This document shows positions 3,452 to 30,788 of a stretch of DNA of 32,000 nt, in pieces. The notes below the pieces were generated by a model. That model saw nothing but the letters and a program-made list of their open reading frames with translations, did no database searches and was not told where the DNA came from. The position numbers and the translations under genes were made by a program. Position 1 is the stretch's first letter. Each line of letters begins with the position of its first letter. The DNA is from Candidatus Velamenicoccus archaeovorus (GTDB taxonomy: Bacteria; Omnitrophota; Gorgyraeia; Velamenicoccales; Velamenicoccaceae). The stretch covers positions 1,080,001 through 1,112,000 of the forward strand of contig NZ_CP019384.1 in assembly GCF_004102945.1 (NCBI RefSeq), read 5' to 3'.

Positions 3452-3772
3452 CGCCGCCTCCCTGCGTTCCTGTATGCCCCCTTTATAACAAAACCCCGCC
3501 AGGACCCAAGGCCTCTGACGGGATGATTGAGAGCCTTGTCGTTTGTCCCTCGATATATCGCTTGCGTTTTTTGCCTACTCCGGCAAAAAACTCTGCGCAA
3601 TCATCGGGACAAAATTTGCAAGGAAAACTCTCAAATACCAATTTTGGCGACAGGGAATATTTTGCCGCCGATTCCTTCAATCGCTCTCCCGGCGAAGCTG
3701 CCCCTCGTTTCCAAAAATAGATCAGACAGAAACTCGGGACAAAATTTGAATGAAAAAAGATCAAACAAATTT

Positions 3773-3910: not shown

Positions 3911-3987
3911 TGGTGGCGGAGAGTGGATTTAAACCACCGACCAAGCGGGTATGAGCCGCGTGCTCTATCAGGCTGAGCTACTCCGCC
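3911..3987 (-). tRNA. tRNA with CAU anticodon (elongator Met or Ile2/lysidine type), CCA encoded
   Basis: Reverse complement: GGCGGAG-TA-GCTC-AGCCTGATA-GAGC-A-CGCGG-CTCATAC-CCGCT-TGGTC-GGTGG-TTTAAAT-CCACT-CTCCGCC-A-CCA. It folds as a full cloverleaf with a 7-bp acceptor and anticodon loop CU-CAU-AC. It is not initiator-like: 1:72 is paired and there is no GGG/CCC anticodon stem. The T-arm GGTCGGTGGTT.AA.TCCACTC resembles bacterial tRNA-Ile. Confidence 0.9.
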
Positions 3988-9052: not shown

Positions 9053-9183
9053 CAAGAAACAAATCACAAACAAATTCCAATATCCAATAATCAAATAAAA
9101 AATCCGCCTTTTTGTTTGGTCGTTCGAATTTGGTGATTGATTATTGTTTGGTCATTGTATCTTGGAATTTGATCATTCTTTTT

Positions 9184-11115
9184 TTAATACTTTACGCTTG
9201 GAAACCTGCCGGCGTCGGTATGCGGAAAGAAAAGCGCCGCCATATATTCGTCCATATACGCGGCATCCGTCGAAAGCTCAAAATAAGTAATATTGCCTGC
9301 GATCCGGTCGCATGCCTGCGCGGCGTCACGGGACAAAAGGACCTCCCTGGCGCCCGCCAGAGAACTGTTCCCGACAAAGACATACCTCTCGCGCGGCAAA
9401 TCCGGGATCAGGCCGATAAAAACGGCGCTCTCCACGTTCAGCGACGTGCCGAATCCGCCCGCGACAAAGACCCTGCGGATATCGCCGGCCTTCAATTCCA
9501 TGTGCCTGACCAGAAGCGATACCGCCGAATAGATGGCCGCTTTGGCCCTTTTGAAATTATCAAGGTCGGCGTCGGTCACCACGATGTCATTGTCAAGCCC
9601 TGCCTGAGGACCGGAAACCACAACAAACTCATAGCCGGCTGAAGACGGCCGCAGACGTGAATGGGCCTTCTCTCTGTTGAGCTTACCGTTCTTGTCGACC
9701 ACACCGGCGCGCAACAACTGCATCACCAGATCGATATAGCCGGAGCCGCAGATGCCCCGCGGCTTGTCGCCGCCGATCGTCGTATAGGCGACATCGAGGG
9801 ACTCAGGATCGACGTGGACCGCCTGGATGGCGCCGCGCACGGCACGCAGACCGCATGCCATGCCGCTACCCTCGAAAGCAGGGCCCGCCGATGCGGCGCA
9901 GCTGATCAGCCATTCGTTATTCCCCAGGACGATCTCTCCGTTCGTCCCGATGTCGATCAACAACTCCAAATCCTTGGATTTGAAGATCTCGCACGACAAG
10001 ACCCCTGCCGTGATATCGCCGCCCACATAACTGGAGACTCCCGGCAGGCAATAGAGGACACCGTGAGGATTGATCTTGAGGCCGGCCTCCGCCGCCCTGA
10101 TCGCAGGGATATAATTCGCCGTCGGCACATAAGGCGCCTGGCGGATATGCGACGGGTCTATGCGCAACAGCAGGTGGATCATGGTCGTATTTCCGGAGAC
10201 GCAGACGCACGTCACATCGTTCAAGTCTACATCGTGCTCTTCGATAAAAGACTCCGCCATCTCATTCAAGACATCGACGACCGCATGGTGAAGTTTCTCC
10301 AAGCCATCGGCCGCCTGGGCATAGATGATCCGCGTGATGATATCCGAGCCAAACGTCGCCTGCCGGTTATAGGTCGCCTTTGTCCCCAGGACCTTCTTGT
10401 GCGTCAAATCGACCAGCTGTCCGGTGATCGTCGTCGTGCCGATATCGAAAACCAGGCCGAAATTCTTCTGCGAACTGTCCCCAGGCTCAATGGCGAGGAT
10501 CTCATAAACCGGCCCTTTTGCGGCCACGGCCACGGTCACACTCCAGGAACTGGTACGCAATAACTCTCCCAGCTTCCTTAAGTTCGCCAGGCCCGTATGC
10601 AGGGGCGCGTCGCCGATCTTCTCCTGGACGGCCCGACAGACACGCTCCAGATCGCTCAACTTGTCGTTGAAATCCGGCGCAGGCAGCTCAAAATGGAATT
10701 TTTCCACCAAAGGCCGGAACGCAAACACCTCTTGCGTCAACCCCGGCTTGGCCTCCTGAATATCTTCTGCCGGCGCATAGATACCCCGCAGGCGCAAGGC
10801 GAGCTCCTCGCGGCTCAAAGCGCTCAGATCCAGGCGGGACTCCGGAAAAATCTCGACTGTCAGATCGGATTCCGCCAATGTCTGACATGCCAGATAGACG
10901 CCGGCATTCCTGTCTTGCGGAGCAATGCGGCCCGATGGCTCGGCATGGACCTTGCCGCTTTTGACCAGGACGCGGCACTTGCCGCAAACCCCGTCGCCGC
11001 CGCAGCTGGAATTCAGATGGATGTGGGCGGTAAGGGCCGCGGACAAAAGGCTCGTCCCCCGGTCCACGACGACCTTCTTGTTATCCGGCAAAAATGTGAT
11101 GATACACTTGTCCAT
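9184..11115 (-). CDS. Reductive activator of corrinoid Fe-S protein (RACo-type; [2Fe-2S] ferredoxin domain plus ASKHA ATPase)
   Basis: From ATG 11115 (MDKCIITFLPDNKKVVV). The N-terminal plant-type ferredoxin motif is SSCGGDGVCGKCRV...YLACQT. It is followed by ASKHA-like blocks (FDIGTTT, IDIGTNGE, GICGSG). 643 aa, and it sits at the 'orf7' position between acsC and acsF/cooC. The track ORF's extra 22 codons lie in a repeat element. Confidence 0.88.
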   Translation of the reverse strand: MDKCIITFLPDNKKVVVDRGTSLLSAALTAHIHLNSSCGGDGVCGKCRVLVKSGKVHAEPSGRIAPQDRNAGVYLACQTLAESDLTVEIFPESRLDLSALSREELALRLRGIYAPAEDIQEAKPGLTQEVFAFRPLVEKFHFELPAPDFNDKLSDLERVCRAVQEKIGDAPLHTGLANLRKLGELLRTSSWSVTVAVAAKGPVYEILAIEPGDSSQKNFGLVFDIGTTTITGQLVDLTHKKVLGTKATYNRQATFGSDIITRIIYAQAADGLEKLHHAVVDVLNEMAESFIEEHDVDLNDVTCVCVSGNTTMIHLLLRIDPSHIRQAPYVPTANYIPAIRAAEAGLKINPHGVLYCLPGVSSYVGGDITAGVLSCEIFKSKDLELLIDIGTNGEIVLGNNEWLISCAASAGPAFEGSGMACGLRAVRGAIQAVHVDPESLDVAYTTIGGDKPRGICGSGYIDLVMQLLRAGVVDKNGKLNREKAHSRLRPSSAGYEFVVVSGPQAGLDNDIVVTDADLDNFKRAKAAIYSAVSLLVRHMELKAGDIRRVFVAGGFGTSLNVESAVFIGLIPDLPRERYVFVGNSSLAGAREVLLSRDAAQACDRIAGNITYFELSTDAAYMDEYMAALFFPHTDAGRFPSVKY

Positions 11116-11124
11116 CGTCAAACC

Positions 11125-11196
11125 CCTAATCCAAAAAGGACAGGTCTCCGCATGGCTCCTCCGATAGAATCGGGTAACCACATAAAAGAGAACCTA
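11125..11196 (-). repeat. Two-hairpin 'Y' module filling the acsC/RACo spacer
   Basis: Minus strand: TAGGTTCTC-[long loop with TTTTATGTGGTTA...CCATGC]-GGAGACCT-GTCC-TTTTT-GGAT-TAGG. This is homologous to the modules at 21958-22050 and 29706-30095. Its TAG head is the acsC stop codon. TAGG occurs at both ends. Confidence 0.6.
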
Positions 11197-12534
11197 TCCT
11201 TGCGCAAGGTTCTTTAAAAACACAGGCAACCCCGAAGCCTCGCGCGGCCCGACCACGACGCGCCAGCCCGACTTATCCTCCAGGTCCCCGCTCATCATGG
11301 CCACGTATCCCGGGATCACAATGCTCTTGTGCCGCACCGTATCCGCCAGCTTGAATTTCGTCAGCGTATCGGCGATCTGTTCGGCTCCGAATTTTTCCGC
11401 GGCCCAGGCCGTCAATACGGACATCCCCTCGGTATCCATGCACAACAGATAGCATGGCCGGCGGCTGGATTCGATCTCACCCAAGACCGTGTAATACGTC
11501 AGGGAGAAATTCGTCGTCACAAGCAAAGGCGAATCCTGCGAAACAGCCCCGACAGGATAGACGTTCGGCTCGACCTGGAGGGGCTTCTGCGGATCCGTAT
11601 AAATATTCTGCCTCAGCGTCAACAAAGGCAGGATGTGCTCCGGTTTCGTCGTCCTCACCAATAAGATGCTCGCATATTTGGCGATGTAGGCGGCGGCCTG
11701 GCAAACGGCCTCGCTTTCCACGGCGGTATTCACGACCACCATCGTCGGGAATCCAAGACTGCGTTCGCCTTTTTTCAGGCTCAATCGCCTGATCTGGGTC
11801 AACTGCCACAGCCGCTCTGTCGTTGTATTTTCGGGAATGTCCAGGACAAGATCCGCAAAGCCGGCCTGGGCCGCTTTCTTTGTCGCGGCAGAAAATTCCT
11901 CAAGACTGGATGCCCGAAACGCCAGAGGAACATGGGACTCCTTGCAGACGGTAACAAAAGCCTCAAGATCCGTCGCTTTCGGGCAATAAACCAGAGGCCG
12001 CTCGGACGCGCAAAGACGGAGGGCGGCCTTCAACGTTTCCGCAGAACAAGCCATCAGGACAAGCGGCAGGGAAACAGCCGCGCGTATGCGCCGAAGCTGT
12101 TCCACAAAAACCTCCGTCCTGGCGCTTGTGTTGCGCAGCGCGACCAGCTCGACGCCGATCTGTTGGCCGACGCGCTCAAACCTTAAAGACCGTATCTGTC
12201 CCAGCGTCCGGTCAAGCTCAGCTACAGGCAGATCGTCTTCCACAATCAACCCGATTGCCGTCGGGTGGTGGAATTTTTCTTCGTGACGAAAGAGGACGGT
12301 CTCCTGGCCTACGGCCACACGCCTCTCGCCGGTGCCGATCTCGACGAGACGGATGGCAGGCAGGGAAGCTTCCTCAAGTTTGAGCCGCACCGATTCGCCG
12401 ACAGACGGACACTTGTCCAAGCTGACGGCTTTCTTGGCCAACTGCATCGCAAAAGCCAGGCACGTCTGAAAACCGCACTTCTTGCAGTTGGTCTTGGGCA
12501 AAAGCTTATAAATATCCAATCCCGACAAAGCCAT
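11194..12534 (-). CDS. acsC: Corrinoid iron-sulfur protein large subunit AcsC (CdhE-like)
   Basis: 446 aa. The N-terminal [4Fe-4S] motif is LPKTNCKKCGFQTCLAFAMQLAKKAVSLDKCP (CX2CX4CX16C). A TIM-barrel and a C-terminal corrinoid-binding domain follow. Length matches Moorella AcsC. Confidence 0.92.
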   Translation of the reverse strand: MALSGLDIYKLLPKTNCKKCGFQTCLAFAMQLAKKAVSLDKCPSVGESVRLKLEEASLPAIRLVEIGTGERRVAVGQETVLFRHEEKFHHPTAIGLIVEDDLPVAELDRTLGQIRSLRFERVGQQIGVELVALRNTSARTEVFVEQLRRIRAAVSLPLVLMACSAETLKAALRLCASERPLVYCPKATDLEAFVTVCKESHVPLAFRASSLEEFSAATKKAAQAGFADLVLDIPENTTTERLWQLTQIRRLSLKKGERSLGFPTMVVVNTAVESEAVCQAAAYIAKYASILLVRTTKPEHILPLLTLRQNIYTDPQKPLQVEPNVYPVGAVSQDSPLLVTTNFSLTYYTVLGEIESSRRPCYLLCMDTEGMSVLTAWAAEKFGAEQIADTLTKFKLADTVRHKSIVIPGYVAMMSGDLEDKSGWRVVVGPREASGLPVFLKNLAQG

Positions 12535-15158: not shown

Positions 15159-15597
15159 GCGGCACCCCCTTATTTAGCATCACCCTCTCGAATCCTCTTA
15201 AAAACAAGAGAACCAAAAGAACCAACAAGGTCACAACGACGGAGACCTTGAAGAACCCGCATCCGATGCTCAAACCCAACGCTGCCACAACCCACAGGCT
15301 CGATGCTGTTGTCAATCCCCGGATCCCCTCGGGGGAGCGGATGATCGTGCCGGCGCCGAGAAACCCGATGCCCGTGATGACACCGGCGGCAATCCGCGTC
15401 GGATCCATATTTGCTACAGATTTATATATATCAAAAACATGCAGCGATGTCAACATAATGAGGCACGACCCGACGCAAACAAGGATGTGCGTACGCAACC
15501 CCGCTTGGTGACGGCAAATTTGGCGTTCCAGCCCGATCAGGCCGCTTAACACAAAAGCGATCAAAATCCTGAGTACCATTTCATTGTCTGTGATCAT
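15127..15597 (-). CDS. mgtC: MgtC/SapB family membrane protein
   Basis: 156 aa. RILIAFVLSGLIGLERQ...GLRTHILVCVGSCLIM...AAGVITGIGFLGAGTI is the MgtC family signature. Its 3' end overlaps the bactofilin gene start by 32 nt. Confidence 0.85.
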   Translation of the reverse strand: MITDNEMVLRILIAFVLSGLIGLERQICRHQAGLRTHILVCVGSCLIMLTSLHVFDIYKSVANMDPTRIAAGVITGIGFLGAGTIIRSPEGIRGLTTASSLWVVAALGLSIGCGFFKVSVVVTLLVLLVLLFLRGFERVMLNKGVPHGHKRQEEGD

Positions 15598-15614
15598 GCA
15601 ATCCTCCTTAATTC

Positions 15615-15741
15615 CGCCTCTGGCGGAATTAACTCCGAGTGTAGCTGAAAAATTTCTGGTTGCCCGTCCGAGCTCTGCGAGGACTGGTCGCAGGCATAAA
15701 TTGTCAAGATGCTTACACGGGGAACAACGTCTCTTTAGATT
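15615..15741 (+). repeat. 127-bp repeat-element segment bounded by a 10-bp direct repeat TCCTTAATTC; contains the conserved 'X' box
   Basis: TCCTTAATTC occurs at 15605-15614 and 15742-15751. The interior holds hairpin TTAATTCCGCC-TCT-GGCGGAATTAA, which uses the left repeat. It also holds box 15662-15747, homologous to 29969-30048 (first 32 nt 31/32 identical). Confidence 0.7.
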
Positions 15742-15767
15742 TCCTTAATTCTCATATGTCTTTATCC

Positions 15768-20411: not shown

Positions 20412-20417
20412 ATTTTC

Positions 20418-21857: not shown

Positions 21858-22054
21858 CCCGTTAGACCTCCCGAGTATGCGGATCTTCCAACAAAAATCG
21901 TTTTCTTCACGGCATTTTATGCTTGAGTTACATCAAAACGTCAGACGCAAGGTCTAACCCAGAAAGGGTAGGTCTCCGCATACCATATTAGAGGAGGACC
22001 TAACCGAGAAAAGGCAGGCCTCCGCATACCGCACACTAAGGAGGGCCTAACGGG
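21858..22054. mobile_element. 197-bp non-autonomous (MITE/REPIN-like) element with terminal inverted repeats and a 6-bp target-site duplication, inserted at the gatC/gatA junction
   Basis: The TIRs are CCCGTTAGACCTCCC (21858-21872) and GGAGGGCCTAACGGG (22040-22054). They match 12/15 as inverted repeats, and the outer 8 nt are identical. The flanking direct repeat is ATTCAT at 21852-21857 and 22055-22060. The interior holds two tandem Y modules (21958-22003, 22004-22050) and a large terminal hairpin. Confidence 0.8.
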
Positions 22055-27347: not shown

Positions 27348-29531
27348 TTACCGTCCCGGCTTCATCAAACCTCGACAAGCCAGGACAATGGGACTGGCGA
27401 TAAAGATCGTCGAATAGCAGCCGATGATAAAACCGAACAAAAGGGACAGCGCAAAAGAATTCAGGATCTCGCCGCCCAGGACATACATGGAGACAACGAC
27501 CAGAAGCGTCGCCAATGATGTCAGAATCGTCCTCGCCAGCGTCTGGTTCAAGGCCAGATTAATAACATCCCGCAATCCCACCTTGAATTTCGTGCGCATG
27601 AGCTCGCGGACCCTGTCGTAAATGACGATCGTGTCGTTGATCGAATAACCGGCGATCGTCAAGAGGGCCGTCACGATCAAAAGATCGATCTGGCGGTTCA
27701 TGAACACGAGAAAACCGGCCGTCAGCACCACGTCGTGAAGAAGCGCGAACACGCCGCCCACCGCAAAATCAAAATGCTTGAAACGGATCGCGACATATAG
27801 AAGAATGCCGATCAGCGAATAGACGATGGCAAGCGTCGCTTTCTTCTTCAGTTCCCTGCCGACGGTAGGGCCGATCTTCTCGATCCTCATCACCTCAAAA
27901 GGATTGTTACCGAATATCTTTTTGAATTCCGCCTGCACGGCATCCGCCGAATCCTCTCCGGAGCGGATGATCACCTGGCGCGGGTCTTCCTTCACCTGCT
28001 GGATATTGGCGTCGGGTAACCCCATGTCCTTCATCGCGGTGCGCAACTGTTCGATCGGCACGGCCGTCTGGAACCTGTATTCCTGGAGCTGCCCTCCGGA
28101 AAACTCGACGCCGTAGGCCGTATTCCCTTTCTTGACAAAAGAGACGATGCCGACGACAAAAATCAACCCTGAAAGCGCATAGGCCCAATAACGTCTCTTG
28201 ATAAAATCAAAATGCGTCTCCTTTTTAATGAACGAACGGAAAGACAGACCCTTGATGGCGTTCTTGTAGAGCAAAAAGTCAAAGATGAGCCTCGTGACGA
28301 CAATCGCCGTAAACATGCTTGCCACCAAACCGATCGTCAATGTCACGGCAAAACCGCGAATGGGACCTGTCCCGAACTGGAAAAGGAAAAATGCCGCGAT
28401 CAGCGTCGTCACATTGGAATCGAATATCGCCGAAAACGCCTTGTCGTAACCGTTGGCGACCGCTGTGCGCAAAGGTCGTCCGAGCGCCAGCTCGTCCCTC
28501 ATGCGCTCATTGATCAGGACATTGGCGTCAACAGCCATACCGATGGTCAAGATGATACCGGCGATGCCCGGCAAGGTCAACGTGGCATGAAAAAGGCCCA
28601 AACCACCCAGGATGATAAAAACGTTGAATAAAAGGGCGAAATCCGCAATCAACCCCGTCGCGCCGTAGTAAAAAACCATAAAAAGGAAGACGAGGGCCGC
28701 GCCGACCAGACACGCGAACAACCCCTTGCGGATCGAATCCTGTCCCAGGAGCGGCCCCACCGTCCGCTCTTCCTCGATGATCAAGGGCGCCGGAAGGGAA
28801 CCCGAGCGCAAGACAATGGCAAGGTCCTTGGCCTCATCGGGAGTAAAACGGCCCGAGATGACGGCCTCGCCCGTCGGAATAGGCTCATCGATCCTCGGCG
28901 CCGAATATATGTTGCCGTCCAGGACGATCGCCAGGCGCCGCCCGACGTTATTCTTCGTCAAATCGGCAAACTTTTTGATACCGTCGCCCTTCAGCTTCAT
29001 GCTGACGATCGGCTGACCGAAAGCGCTCTGGTCGAATTTGACATCTGCCGTCTCAAGATATTCTCCCGTGACCGCCGGTGTCTTGCTCAACAGAAGCTTT
29101 TCGCCTTCGAGCTCTTTGAGTTCGAATCCCTCTGGGACATTTCCCGCGATAGCGTCGGAGATGGCCTTTGTATCGTTGCTGACAAGCTTGAATTCAAGCA
29201 GGGCCGTACGGCCGATCAATTCCAGCGCGCGTTTCCTATCCGTCATACCAGGGAGCTGGACGACGATCTGGTCCGCCCCTTGGATCTGGATCAAGGGTTC
29301 GCGGACCCCAAATTGATCGATCCTGTTACGGATGATCTCCAAAGCGCGCTCCACGGCGTCTTCTTTGGCCTTATCGCTCAACTTGCTGGTATCCACCTTC
29401 AGGATCAGATACATTCCTCCCTGAAGGTCGAGACCAAGGCTGATCCGTTTGTTCAACGGAAAGGCCAACAAGGCGGTCACCAGGATGACGCCGAGAATCA
29501 ACAGACCCCGATACAACAGACTTTTTTGCAT
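27348..29531 (-). CDS. secDF: Fused protein-export membrane protein SecDF
   Basis: 727 aa. The SecD periplasmic region (GLDLQGG, LEFKLV) and its TM bundle are followed by SecF-like blocks (GVEFSGG, IGPTVG, YDRVRE). Confidence 0.92.
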   Translation of the reverse strand: MQKSLLYRGLLILGVILVTALLAFPLNKRISLGLDLQGGMYLILKVDTSKLSDKAKEDAVERALEIIRNRIDQFGVREPLIQIQGADQIVVQLPGMTDRKRALELIGRTALLEFKLVSNDTKAISDAIAGNVPEGFELKELEGEKLLLSKTPAVTGEYLETADVKFDQSAFGQPIVSMKLKGDGIKKFADLTKNNVGRRLAIVLDGNIYSAPRIDEPIPTGEAVISGRFTPDEAKDLAIVLRSGSLPAPLIIEEERTVGPLLGQDSIRKGLFACLVGAALVFLFMVFYYGATGLIADFALLFNVFIILGGLGLFHATLTLPGIAGIILTIGMAVDANVLINERMRDELALGRPLRTAVANGYDKAFSAIFDSNVTTLIAAFFLFQFGTGPIRGFAVTLTIGLVASMFTAIVVTRLIFDFLLYKNAIKGLSFRSFIKKETHFDFIKRRYWAYALSGLIFVVGIVSFVKKGNTAYGVEFSGGQLQEYRFQTAVPIEQLRTAMKDMGLPDANIQQVKEDPRQVIIRSGEDSADAVQAEFKKIFGNNPFEVMRIEKIGPTVGRELKKKATLAIVYSLIGILLYVAIRFKHFDFAVGGVFALLHDVVLTAGFLVFMNRQIDLLIVTALLTIAGYSINDTIVIYDRVRELMRTKFKVGLRDVINLALNQTLARTILTSLATLLVVVSMYVLGGEILNSFALSLLFGFIIGCYSTIFIASPIVLACRGLMKPGR

Positions 29532-29583
29532 ATCAAAACTCCTTGATTTTGCCTATAACCAGGTCTTTTCCTTACAAAATCAA

Positions 29584-30092
29584 TCCCGAGTCTGCGCAGG
29601 AAATTTTTGCCGACCGGCCAGCTTCGCTGGCCGAGTCGTGGCAAAAATTTACAAGCGTTGAGACGAGGGATAAACAGTTATTCCTTAATCCTGCCTCCGG
29701 CGGGATTAGACCCTTCGCTTATTTGGTATTGCGAAGGTCTACCCCCTTGTGGGGTTAACTCCTCCACCCGGCCTCATCGGATGGCCGCACCTTGCCTCAT
29801 TCGGACGGCAAGTGCGCCACCTTCTGTGGCGGTGTGCCGCTTTCTGCTTGCCTGCTATGGCAGGCAAAGCGTATCTTGGAAATATCTGGCTGCACCTGGC
29901 CCCATCTGAAGGGCCAGTGTTCCGCTTCCTGCGGAACCCGCCCCGTTACAAATTGCATTTGTAACGGGGCCCGTCCGAGTTCTGCGAGGACTGGTCGCAG
30001 ACAGATATTGACAAGATGTTTACGCAAGGAGTGACGTATATTTCCTTAGGCCCTTCCCTTATGTGGTATGGGGAAGGCCTACCCCTTGTGGG
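29584..30092 (+). repeat. 509-bp composite of nested or tandem hairpin repeats between yajC and secDF, bounded by a 12-bp direct repeat
   Basis: TTACAAAATCAA occurs at 29572-29583 and 30093-30104. The contents in order are:
- Diverged X copy 29584-29682, enclosing hairpin 29601-29650.
- Hairpin TTAATCCTGCC-TCC-GGCGGGATTA (~29687-29709).
- Y1 at 29706-29757.
- Six back-to-back GC hairpins at 29769-29937.
- A perfect 14-bp-stem hairpin at 29940-29970.
- X box at 29969-30048.
- Y2 at 30046-30095. Confidence 0.8.
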
Positions 30093-30100
30093 TTACAAAA

Positions 30101-30382
30101 TCAAGCGCCGGCTTTCTCCAGGCGTCCGATGGCGCTCTTGTCGATCTCGATGCGCGTGTTATCGTCGATCCTGACGACCAGCGTCTTGTCTTTGACGTTG
30201 ATGATCGTCCCGTGGATGCCGCCGACCGTCACGATCTGGTCATTTTTTTTCAGGGCTTCCAGCATCTTTTTGAAATCCTTCTGCTGTTTCTGCTGGGGAC
30301 GGATGAGGATAAAATAAAAAATAAGGAAGATCAGCGCTAGGGGAAACAGATTGGCCAGCATACCGGCCTGTGCCGTATTCAT
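30101..30382 (-). CDS. yajC: Preprotein translocase subunit YajC
   Basis: 93 aa. A single TM helix is followed by IRPQQK..K....M...L.K.D.V.T.GG..G.I, the YajC signature. Confidence 0.9.
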   Translation of the reverse strand: MNTAQAGMLANLFPLALIFLIFYFILIRPQQKQQKDFKKMLEALKKNDQIVTVGGIHGTIINVKDKTLVVRIDDNTRIEIDKSAIGRLEKAGA

Positions 30383-30710: not shown

Positions 30711-30788
30711 AGTCAACCCATATTCCCAGGCCTGACCCTGGCCTTGTCCTCGGCCTGCCCTTCGGGCAAGGCCAGGGTCAGGCCGGGG
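30711..30788 (+). repeat. Repeat: 17-nt box AGTCAACCCATATTCCC plus long GC hairpin (copy 2 of 2)
   Basis: The 17-mer matches 4061-4077 exactly. It is followed by AGGCCTGACCCTGGCCTTG...CAAGGCCAGGGTCAGGCC, a ~19-bp stem. It lies 34-111 nt upstream of rpsP in the transcription direction. Confidence 0.7.

Follow-up and report, generated by a model that had tools for sequence, protein, structure and literature searches.

Repeats in the Window

The window analyzed here is a 32-kb stretch of the chromosome of Candidatus Velamenicoccus archaeovorus, a member of the Omnitrophota, and holds a run of minus-strand housekeeping genes: tilS, a pilin-like gene, a TPR gene, acetyl-CoA-synthase/corrinoid genes, larC-like, bactofilin, mgtC, tsaD, a peptidase gene, gatB, gatA, gatC, ksgA, pdxA, surA-like, mfd, secDF, yajC, rpsP, and a gene for a chorismate-binding enzyme. 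Between these genes are five copies (Y1 to Y5) of a short repeat, here called Y, which is made of a long bulged hairpin followed by a mini-hairpin and is typically bounded by TTA. Y1 and Y2 share the 570-nt spacer between yajC and secDF with a repeated cassette (M) and a further small hairpin (X) (table 1).

Table 1. Y copies, host cassettes, hairpin X, and empty sites in the window
Feature	Position	Strand	Description
Y1	29706..29757	+	52 nt, in order: TTA, G, long bulged-C stem with loop TTATTTGGTATT, mini-hairpin CCCC/GGGG, TTA; directly 3' of hairpin X, within the cassette upstream of secDF; antisense to the genes
Y2	30046..30095	+	50 nt; 5 nt from the yajC stop codon (30101-30103); antisense to yajC/secDF
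Y3	22001..22050	-	First unit of a head-to-tail pair; begins 6 nt past the gatC stop; sense orientation
Y4	21955..22003	-	Second of the two units, in the gatC-gatA spacer; sense orientation
Y5	11125..11197	-	Long-loop variant, its loop containing a 24-nt hairpin; in the spacer of cdhD and the RACo gene; sense orientation
Cassette M	29597..30045	+	Chain of small hairpins upstream of secDF; hosts Y1, abuts Y2
Short copy of M	15598-15767		Upstream of mgtC
D1 repeat within M	15662-15736 / 29969-30043
Hairpin X	29688..29705	+	ATCCTGCC-TCC-GGCGGGA; TTA on both sides; directly 5' of Y1
Hairpin X, second copy	15611-15628
Empty site	15607..15653	+	X hairpin, single TTA (15629-15631), ACTCCGAG; cassette position filled by Y1 at 29706
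Empty site	29550..29596	+	TTTTCC-TTA-CAAAATCAA; TTA at 29572-29574

A preliminary description of this DNA had proposed the five copies as a family of structured repeats. All five sequences are confirmed at its coordinates, and a covariance model (R1), built from 26 unique Y units of other genomes and the window, recovers every one, Y5 weakly. With filters off, Y1 scores 66 bits and Y5 12 bits (25 bits, E 0.0026, in another run of R1); scores of Y2, Y3, and Y4 are 72, 37, and 68 bits, and E values for Y1 to Y4 with the covariance model are 1e-7 to 1e-15. The low score of Y5 results from the 24-nt insert in its loop, which is homologous to inserts of long-loop copies at other fetched loci (numbered with the prefix L; here L015, at L015:3339, L045, and L080), and Y5 is a genuine member of the family. 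Its head is ATAG, the TAG of which serves as the cdhD stop codon. Nothing beyond Y1 to Y5 rises above noise in the window with R1. The terminal TTA of Y3 (22001-22003) doubles as the head of Y4, and the two units have different stems (GGCCC/GGGCC in Y3 versus GGTCC/GGACC in Y4). Individual copies recur elsewhere: the sequence of Y1 is identical in L006 and L025, which are from other species and have flanks only ~75-97% identical, that of Y2 is identical to a copy in L010, and Y3 occurs alone in L005.

Structure and Covariation

The fold of every window copy comprises a long stem, in which one C (U in Y5) is bulged, a loop of 10-16 nt, and a mini-hairpin of 3-5 bp. Folding z-scores of single copies are modest (-3.5 to +0.3 relative to shuffles), so the case for Y rests on comparison and not on folding. 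Likewise, simple word searches within the window have no significance on their own, whereas the whole unit is significant.

A covariance-model scan yields many further copies. Across the fetched loci, R1 identifies 177 Y copies (56 + 121), representing 120 unique sequences. The long hairpin spans ~36 nt and consists of 6 bp, the bulged C, 5 bp, and a loop ending in GGWAT; the two hairpins of a unit are unlike, an 11-bp bulged stem versus the short stem of the mini-hairpin. Most units are 45-52 nt in length, with a long-loop subfamily of 71-92 nt. Retention of an unpaired C in the 5' arm, with a bulged T in Y5, had been noted in the window copies and agrees with the folds: the arm TAG-RYC-C-YYY, with its extra C, is found in 100 of the 120 unique copies. 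The claim of a conserved TTAG head and GGTAT loop core needs amending. The head is conserved (101/120 unique copies), and the core is really GGWAT (GGAAT in 54/120, GGTAT in 53/120). Nor does TAG in the head form an unpaired tag: T2, A3, and G4 are base-paired to a CTA at the long stem's 3' foot, pairs that hold in 97% of alignment cells.

Compensatory stem changes, first seen among the window copies, are real and generalize to other genomes. In two independent sets, 96% of cells form standard pairs versus 86-87% in shuffles, with none of 500 shuffles reaching 96%, and 10-11 of 14 pairs are changed on both sides; slid controls all drop to 31-58% paired. Fitting of the alignments to the model makes the paired fractions somewhat too high, but the compensatory classes are plain in the raw sequences. 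Alternatives in the long stem include GACC/GGTC versus GGCC/GGCC and TTCGC/GCGAA versus TTCCT/AGGAA versus TCCGC/GCGGA, and those of the mini-hairpin include ACCC/GGGT versus ATCC/GGAT versus GCCC/GGGC. In one rare subfamily the loop is unchanged although the stem (ATACCCCGCGC) is altogether different. Mismatches of the G:T and A:C types are about equal in the long stem (17 vs 14), and a smaller set in which both helices are counted has 20 G:T and 9 A:C; the near equality gives no clear sign of selection acting on one strand only, as RNA.

Distribution across Omnitrophota

An exact IUPAC pattern (TTAGRYCCTYC N8-16 GGTAT N3-6 AGRYCTRYC) matches 34 times in 185,579 species scanned with one genome each (596 Gb), where we estimate ~5 chance matches assuming equal base frequencies. 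All but one of the matches (33/34) fall in 16 assemblies, of which 13 are titled Omnitrophota or Omnitrophica, two Planctomycetia, and one "bacterium"; the two Planctomycetia-titled assemblies carry the same cassettes as Omnitrophica UBA6210. At the single outsider match, in a Chitinophagaceae genome, the stem is absent. Metagenome contigs, scanned with the same pattern and GGWAT in place of GGTAT, added 115 stretches, and viral contigs gave no match to the pattern. Y is conserved phylum-wide across Omnitrophota and is not genome-specific, a spread that the preliminary description had overlooked.

The 177 copies have dozens of unrelated flanks, over 16 genome assemblies and many metagenome contigs, and all are intergenic. 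Species-representative metagenome-assembled genomes (MAGs) each have 1-7 strict-pattern matches, and Y copies per MAG are underestimates because MAGs break at repeats. Contigs of MAGs break at Y copies or at the mosaic cassette; in GCA_041890195.1 (L001), to which exact protein matches link the window and which is 95.7-99.8% nucleotide-identical to it, two contigs end within repeat-rich spacers, at window ~15.6 kb and ~30.0 kb. SecDF of the window has no exact match on record, probably owing to a different choice of start codon.

That Y had not been described before, as initially proposed, is consistent with all searches. An Rfam scan of the window at gathering thresholds matches tRNA-Met alone, a permissive Rfam scan of 29500-30150 returns noise with nothing on Y1 or Y2, and full-text searches of the literature turned up neither a TTAG-tagged family nor any account of repeats in Omnitrophota. 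The outcomes that had been named in advance as contrary to the family (no further copies, nonsignificant covariation, and identity with an already named family) did not occur. It is extremely likely that the Y family and its structure are real.

TTA-Bounded Presence and Absence, Polarity, and Arrays

The Y core, of 43-49 nt, ends in TTA and is directly preceded by a TTA on its own strand. A filled site has the form TTA[G...]TTA and its empty counterpart has one TTA only, a relationship that the preliminary description did not recognize. Empty sites were identified by joining the flanks of every Y copy around one TTA and searching for the result in all collected DNA. Among close relatives of the window, L001 and L002 match the window at 99.7-99.8% identity in neighboring yajC and lack Y2 exactly, and Y4 is exactly missing from L005, with flanks 99.6% identical (CTCGG-TTA-GACCTTGCG in L005 vs CTCGG-TTA[G..GGG-TTA]GACCTTGCG in the window). 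Other empty and filled pairs are L048 versus L030 (100% flank identity), L095 versus L024, and L019 versus six copies of a composite repeat of isolate RS_11_35; for filled L027 and L031, empty sites are found in L025, L117, and L061. The window holds two empty sites of its own. The first and the joined flanks of the filled L006 site share 94% identity, and the corresponding Y1 position is also empty in L044, L096, L061, and L144. The second is 91% identical to the joined flanks of L010:4422, and its position is filled by a Y2-type copy in L010 and at window 30046. Presence and absence also vary between syntenic loci of related species. Y is very probably a discrete TTA-bounded unit that is mobile or unstable.

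Flanks are TTA/TTA in 114 of ~139 unique copies. Three copies have odd flanks that covary (TTG/TTG, CTA/CTA, and CTG/CTG), and two of the three are within arrays, where the left flank is the end of the previous unit. Among 44 unique copies found by the model only, which were not preselected for TTAG, 29 have TTA as the 5' triplet, one has TAA, and most others have a one-base variant. The polarity of Y relative to the nonpalindromic TTA is fixed, and a staggered double-strand cut at TTA should yield both polarities. Y has no terminal inverted repeats (TIRs); its ends are GRYCC... and ...GGRY.

Copies are found in tandem and in both orientations, as was described for the window. Arrays of up to 4-5 head-to-tail units with a shared triplet occur in L020, L036, L080, and L104, and Y3 and Y4 form such an array in the window. 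Neighboring units of an array often differ by compensatory stem changes, as do Y3 and Y4, and therefore are not simple recent tandem duplications. Inverted pairs are also found, ~0.8-1 kb apart, around ordinary genes. In RS_11_35, Y is within the loop (TTAAAA) of a terminator-like hairpin, and another genome has this hairpin without Y. Between codirectional genes, 52 copies are antisense and 26 sense (p = 0.004), with 16 copies between divergent and 10 between convergent genes, as judged from a crude longest-open-reading-frame (ORF) gene call. The antisense bias comes largely from hitchhiking in a leader cassette, and in the cassette of another lineage it is the opposite strand of Y that faces the downstream gene. 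A GC-skew test of replication-strand bias gives 64:30, which is confounded with gene orientation and hence adds no information.

Host Cassettes and Associated Repeats

Y is usually a component of larger repeated mosaics, which were likewise missed at first. Pieces of M are found in L006, L009, L010, L015, L017, L020, L021, L025, L027, L031, and L033, and M recurs upstream of many genes in UBA6210, CAYYFL, CAZAYJ, and JBAZJY. In the near-identical strain of L002 (L002:520-535), ~69 nt of the cassette (window ~29848-29916) are missing between direct repeats GAAGCGG(A/C)AC, which is further evidence of a highly plastic spacer.

On the gene strand, M ends in hairpin X, which has the consensus AATYCCGCC-NNNN-GGCGGRA and is followed by TTA-AGGRG. 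A start codon is 3-11 nt past X-TTA-AGGRG in 26 of 27 unique cases, before many different genes, including mgtC of the window (ATG at 15597); loci with X include L008, L017, L021, L025, L027, L031, L044, L061, L078, and L091. The complement of Y is directly upstream of X in 16 of the 27 cases and not at that position in the other 11. X looks like a portable leader or ribosome-binding cassette. The extended Shine-Dalgarno sequence TTAAGGAGG includes TTA, and we infer that hairpins that seek TTA would therefore pile up just upstream of ribosome-binding sites.

Other small repeats accompany Y and M. A second kind of small hairpin, at window 29771-29830, has unrelated stems and a conserved loop YCAWTCGGAYG (e.g., GGCC-TCATCGGAT-GGCC, CCTTGCC-TCATTCGGAC-GGCAAG, and CTGGCTC-AATCGGAT-GAGCCAG) and is also found inside long-loop Y copies (L010:4585-4676 and L015:3339-3412). 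Window 29931-29968 holds a 34-nt near-perfect palindrome (CCCCGTTACAAAT..ATTTGTAACGGGG) with CCCG on both sides; it is missing from the homologous L010 cassette, and its arms resemble the TIR (ACCCCGTTAGAGAA) of the RS_11_35 composite. This composite is a ~195-nt repeat with TIRs of 14-17 bp and an X-like hairpin, found in L007, L012, L014, L032, L034, and L037 (JAGLUN01, isolate RS_11_35). Its six copies have an identical Y and compensatory changes in the enclosing stem, and its terminator-like hairpin is found without Y at L019:4296-4339.

Proposed Mechanism

We suggest, with a probability of roughly 0.42, that Y is a nonautonomous miniature mobile element of Omnitrophota, REP-like, recognized through its hairpin, and moved strand-specifically in the style of IS200/IS605 elements (REP, repetitive extragenic palindrome). 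Directly supporting observations are the family itself, conservation of its structure, its TTA-bounded presence and absence, its dispersal to many unrelated sites, and its polarity. The mechanism and the class of enzyme are extrapolated from these. The strand that begins with TTAG would fold as single-stranded DNA into the long imperfect hairpin and then the mini-hairpin of 3-5 bp. A trans-acting HUH/Y1-type single-strand transposase that recognizes hairpins, like TnpA of IS200/IS605 or RAYT, would bind the folded unit, cleave just past both the flanking TTA and the TTA that ends Y, and reinsert the unit 3' of another exposed TTA. Such a mechanism would explain precise losses that leave one TTA, fixed polarity, and insertion into hairpin loops, and because each unit ends in a new TTA target, it would also explain head-to-tail arrays. 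Hairpin-binding enzymes such as TnpA of IS608, RAYT, and IntI on attC read a bulged base and loop, and strand-specific insertion next to a fixed short word is the rule for transposition of the IS200/IS605 type. That a single-strand, HUH-type mechanism moves Y is nonetheless tentative, at somewhat less than even odds, and it is possible, though less likely than not, that Y is the substrate of a so far unrecognized, vertically inherited single-strand transposition system common to Omnitrophota.

Several observations weigh against this proposal. No mobilizing enzyme was found in the DNA searched. The window has no transposase gene, HUH/Y1 and RAYT types included, and no HUH/Y1, RAYT, or TnpB-like gene was found in ~1 Mb of copy-bearing loci, in searches with limited sensitivity to distant homologs; the best phmmer match with E. 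coli RayT (E 0.011) is noise. The preliminary description had advised looking for a RAYT or IS200/IS605-type tnpA flanked by inverted Y copies, but the genes bracketed in this way are ordinary: judged by their ORF translations, they resemble a cupin, an EamA-like membrane protein, a cytidine deaminase, and a CobU-like kinase, with no transposase among them. Among the fetched loci there is no autonomous Y with a gene between split ends, and no protein family recurs beside Y: the largest clusters of neighbors are spurious ORFs across a repeated cassette, and the 25 commonest Pfam families listed for 121 neighboring ORFs are all housekeeping plus one phage-integrase-type protein. In addition, known IS200/IS605 elements have a hairpin per end and separate guides, and there is no direct precedent for a single hairpin that serves both cuts. 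Many Y copies are carried inside larger cassettes, so copy counts are not counts of independent insertion events. The allele that lacks Y2 reads TCAA instead of TTA, and several empty sites have TCA; these fit TTA as a preferred target and leave room for imprecise events. Replication slippage between 3-nt repeats across a hairpin can give precise loss without an enzyme, but slippage cannot explain the dispersal of Y to dozens of unrelated sites. Finally, the three pairs of covarying odd flanks would also be explained by a true 3-bp target duplication.

Alternative Explanations

A true duplication is what is expected if Y is a conventional MITE (a miniature transposable element with inverted repeats), moved by a DDE transposase (e.g., IS5/PIF-Harbinger-like) that makes a 3-bp staggered cut at TTA, with the two TTAs as the target-site duplication. 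Filled sites with two TTAs, empty sites with one, and the odd flanks are all consistent with this explanation, as is the presence in these genomes of other MITEs of the TIR type, such as the ~195-nt composite with TIR ACCCCGTTAGAGAA. An enzyme of the DDE class is present as well; the only gene found by a motif regex over the copy-bearing loci is of the IS630 family, in L011. But the TIRs of this IS630-like element (CTAGTGTAGTG...) are unrelated to Y, which rules it out as the mobilizer, and Y itself lacks TIRs, has a fixed polarity (29 TTA vs 1 TAA among the model-only copies), and has a core of 43-49 nt, very small for a DDE substrate. We consider this explanation unlikely.

Another explanation dispenses with transposition. 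Y could be a functional structured RNA, a protein-binding hairpin of 5' untranslated or intercistronic regions that controls mRNA stability, processing, or translation and has spread by selection and recombination of leader cassettes. The GGWAT loop and bulged C are kept across the phylum while stems covary, and Y surpasses its flanks in conservation: 52/52 positions of Y1 match in L025, versus ~75% identity for the surrounding cassette, by our calculation from the alignment. Its reverse complement is often fixed in the leader cassette directly upstream of X, which in 26 of the 27 cases itself abuts a Shine-Dalgarno sequence with its start codon, and Y2, Y3, and Y5 adjoin stop codons. Conversely, both orientations are common (52:26), the opposite strand faces the downstream gene in the cassette of another lineage, G:U pairs are not in excess over A:C, and Y varies in presence between strains >99.6% identical and between syntenic loci. 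There is no U-tract after Y hairpins for termination, no promoter-like site, and no Rfam match; the first two rule out Y as an intrinsic terminator or sigma-70 promoter. We consider this explanation quite unlikely, and a general RNA function of Y is unlikely because of the two orientations, the opposite strand in the other cassette, and the lack of a U-tract or promoter-like site, although individual copies may have been co-opted.

Lastly, Y might be a site that a host protein (a nucleoid protein, topoisomerase, or attC/dif-type recombinase) recognizes in double-stranded or cruciform DNA and that recombination has multiplied; we consider this very unlikely. Its structure is equally good on both strands, and its extrahelical base and imperfect palindrome recall attC and the REP sites bound by gyrase or integration host factor. 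On the other side, the R/L box arrangement of attC is absent, with TTAGGCC at the outer instead of the inner stem end, the surroundings show neither integrase nor cassettes, and binding alone would not explain TTA-bounded insertion polymorphism at unrelated sites.

Comparison with Known Elements

If Y is a hairpin-recognized mobile element, as we suggest, it appears to work most like REPs or IS200/IS605-type elements and to be a hairpin type of miniature mobile DNA. By definition, one end of a REP is a tetranucleotide, GTAG or CGTC, that is left unpaired (PMC3733652), and the REP, BIME, and REPIN repeats associated with RAYT are GTAG- or CGTC-tagged palindromes (PMC3733652, PMC2817692). The parallel with them drawn in the preliminary description holds in that Y is a repeat family, intergenic, and mobile or unstable, and fails for the head and the direction of arrays; no RAYT was found in the loci searched. 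Like REPs (20-40 bp), Y is a short intergenic imperfect palindrome with a conserved terminal tetranucleotide and a bulge, is multicopy in both orientations, and is found between operon genes, near stop codons, and embedded in mosaics of small motifs; even the starts are similar (GTAGGCC in E. coli REP, TTAGGCC in Y). Unlike REPs, Y has a TTAG head with TAG paired, an obligatory second mini-hairpin, a terminal TTA, TTA flanks, and single-TTA empty sites. It forms direct arrays and not the inverted dimers of BIMEs and REPINs, searches of the window and of ~1 Mb of DNA with Y copies revealed no RAYT, and it spans a phylum as one sequence family. REPs often exceed 100 copies per genome, whereas the copy number of Y is apparently modest (no more than 7 strict matches per MAG), though five are found in 32 kb. 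With its paired head, direct arrays, and no RAYT found, Y is not a canonical REP.

The likeness to IS200/IS605 elements and palindrome-associated transposable elements (PATEs) is in the lack of TIRs, strand-specific insertion 3' of a short T-rich word (TTAC for IS608, TTGAT for ISDra2), and, as proposed for Y, recognition through an imperfect hairpin with an extrahelical base and precise excision. Y is far smaller than IS200/IS605 elements (46-52 nt), has one dominant hairpin versus similar hairpins at both ends, has the triplet at its own 3' end as target, producing tandem arrays, and has no TnpA or TnpB linked to it in the fetched loci. With bacterial MITEs that have TA or TTA duplications (IS630/Tc1- and IS5/PIF-derived elements and Correia), Y shares a small size, intergenic location, nonautonomy, short A/T direct-repeat flanks, strain polymorphism, and nesting in other repeats, but it lacks TIRs, has a fixed polarity, and is smaller than typical MITEs by a factor of two to three. 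Like integron attC sites, Y is an imperfect hairpin with an extrahelical base, conserved in structure and not in stem sequence, and it is probably read as a single strand. Unlike attC, Y has no RYYYAAC...GTTRRRY boxes and no cassette ORFs or integrase and is dispersed singly through housekeeping operons; an attC reading is ruled out by arms TTAGGCC/GGCCTAA that have TTA at the outer end.

Further Repeats

Repeats of other kinds were also noted. At L003:4811-4959, from a strain 96-98% identical, a 143-nt insert lies between the gatA stop and the gatB start that is not in the window (20412-20417); its ends (GCGTATCAGAGAGTC and GACTCTTTGATGC) resemble imperfect inverted repeats, which suggests another MITE-like element. 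An inverted repeat with 25-nt arms, 92% complementary, is in the spacer upstream of rpsP (window 30725-30788); the region is 83-86% conserved in L015 and L036 and may be a leader structure or another repeat. Beside the tRNA-Met gene (3911-3987, minus strand) is a direct repeat, TCGGGACAAAATTTG..., at 3604-3635 and 3734-3765, with a spacing of 130 nt. The AT-rich spacer at 9057-9185 has 32-nt tandem and inverted repeats (TTTGTTTGGTCATTG...), and similar motifs (TTGGTTATTGGTCATTG) flank Y copies in L013, L022, and L024.

Implications for Omnitrophota

Omnitrophota are uncultivated, often ultra-small, and known almost only from MAGs. Y and its host mosaic coincide with breakpoints of MAG contigs, and the family can readily serve to mark variation between strains. 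Conservation of the loop and of the bulged C across the phylum is a stronger constraint than is seen in classical REPs and bears on whether REP-like repeats are selfish, domesticated, or both.

If Y is indeed the substrate of an unrecognized single-strand transposition system common to Omnitrophota, one bulged hairpin with a GGWAT loop would direct TTA cuts on both sides, and Y, at ~46 nt, would be among the smallest self-defined mobile elements in bacteria and would make its own next target. The enzyme would then be a divergent RAYT-like protein or a new class, and if the rule of a hairpin plus TTA holds, Y offers a compact substrate for seeking new domesticated or divergent HUH transposases. 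By inserting into hairpin loops and at TTA in ribosome-binding regions of the TTAAGGAGG type, Y would help build the modular leader cassettes found in front of many genes, and the family would show tiny TTA-seeking hairpins assembling portable leader cassettes directly before ribosome-binding sites.

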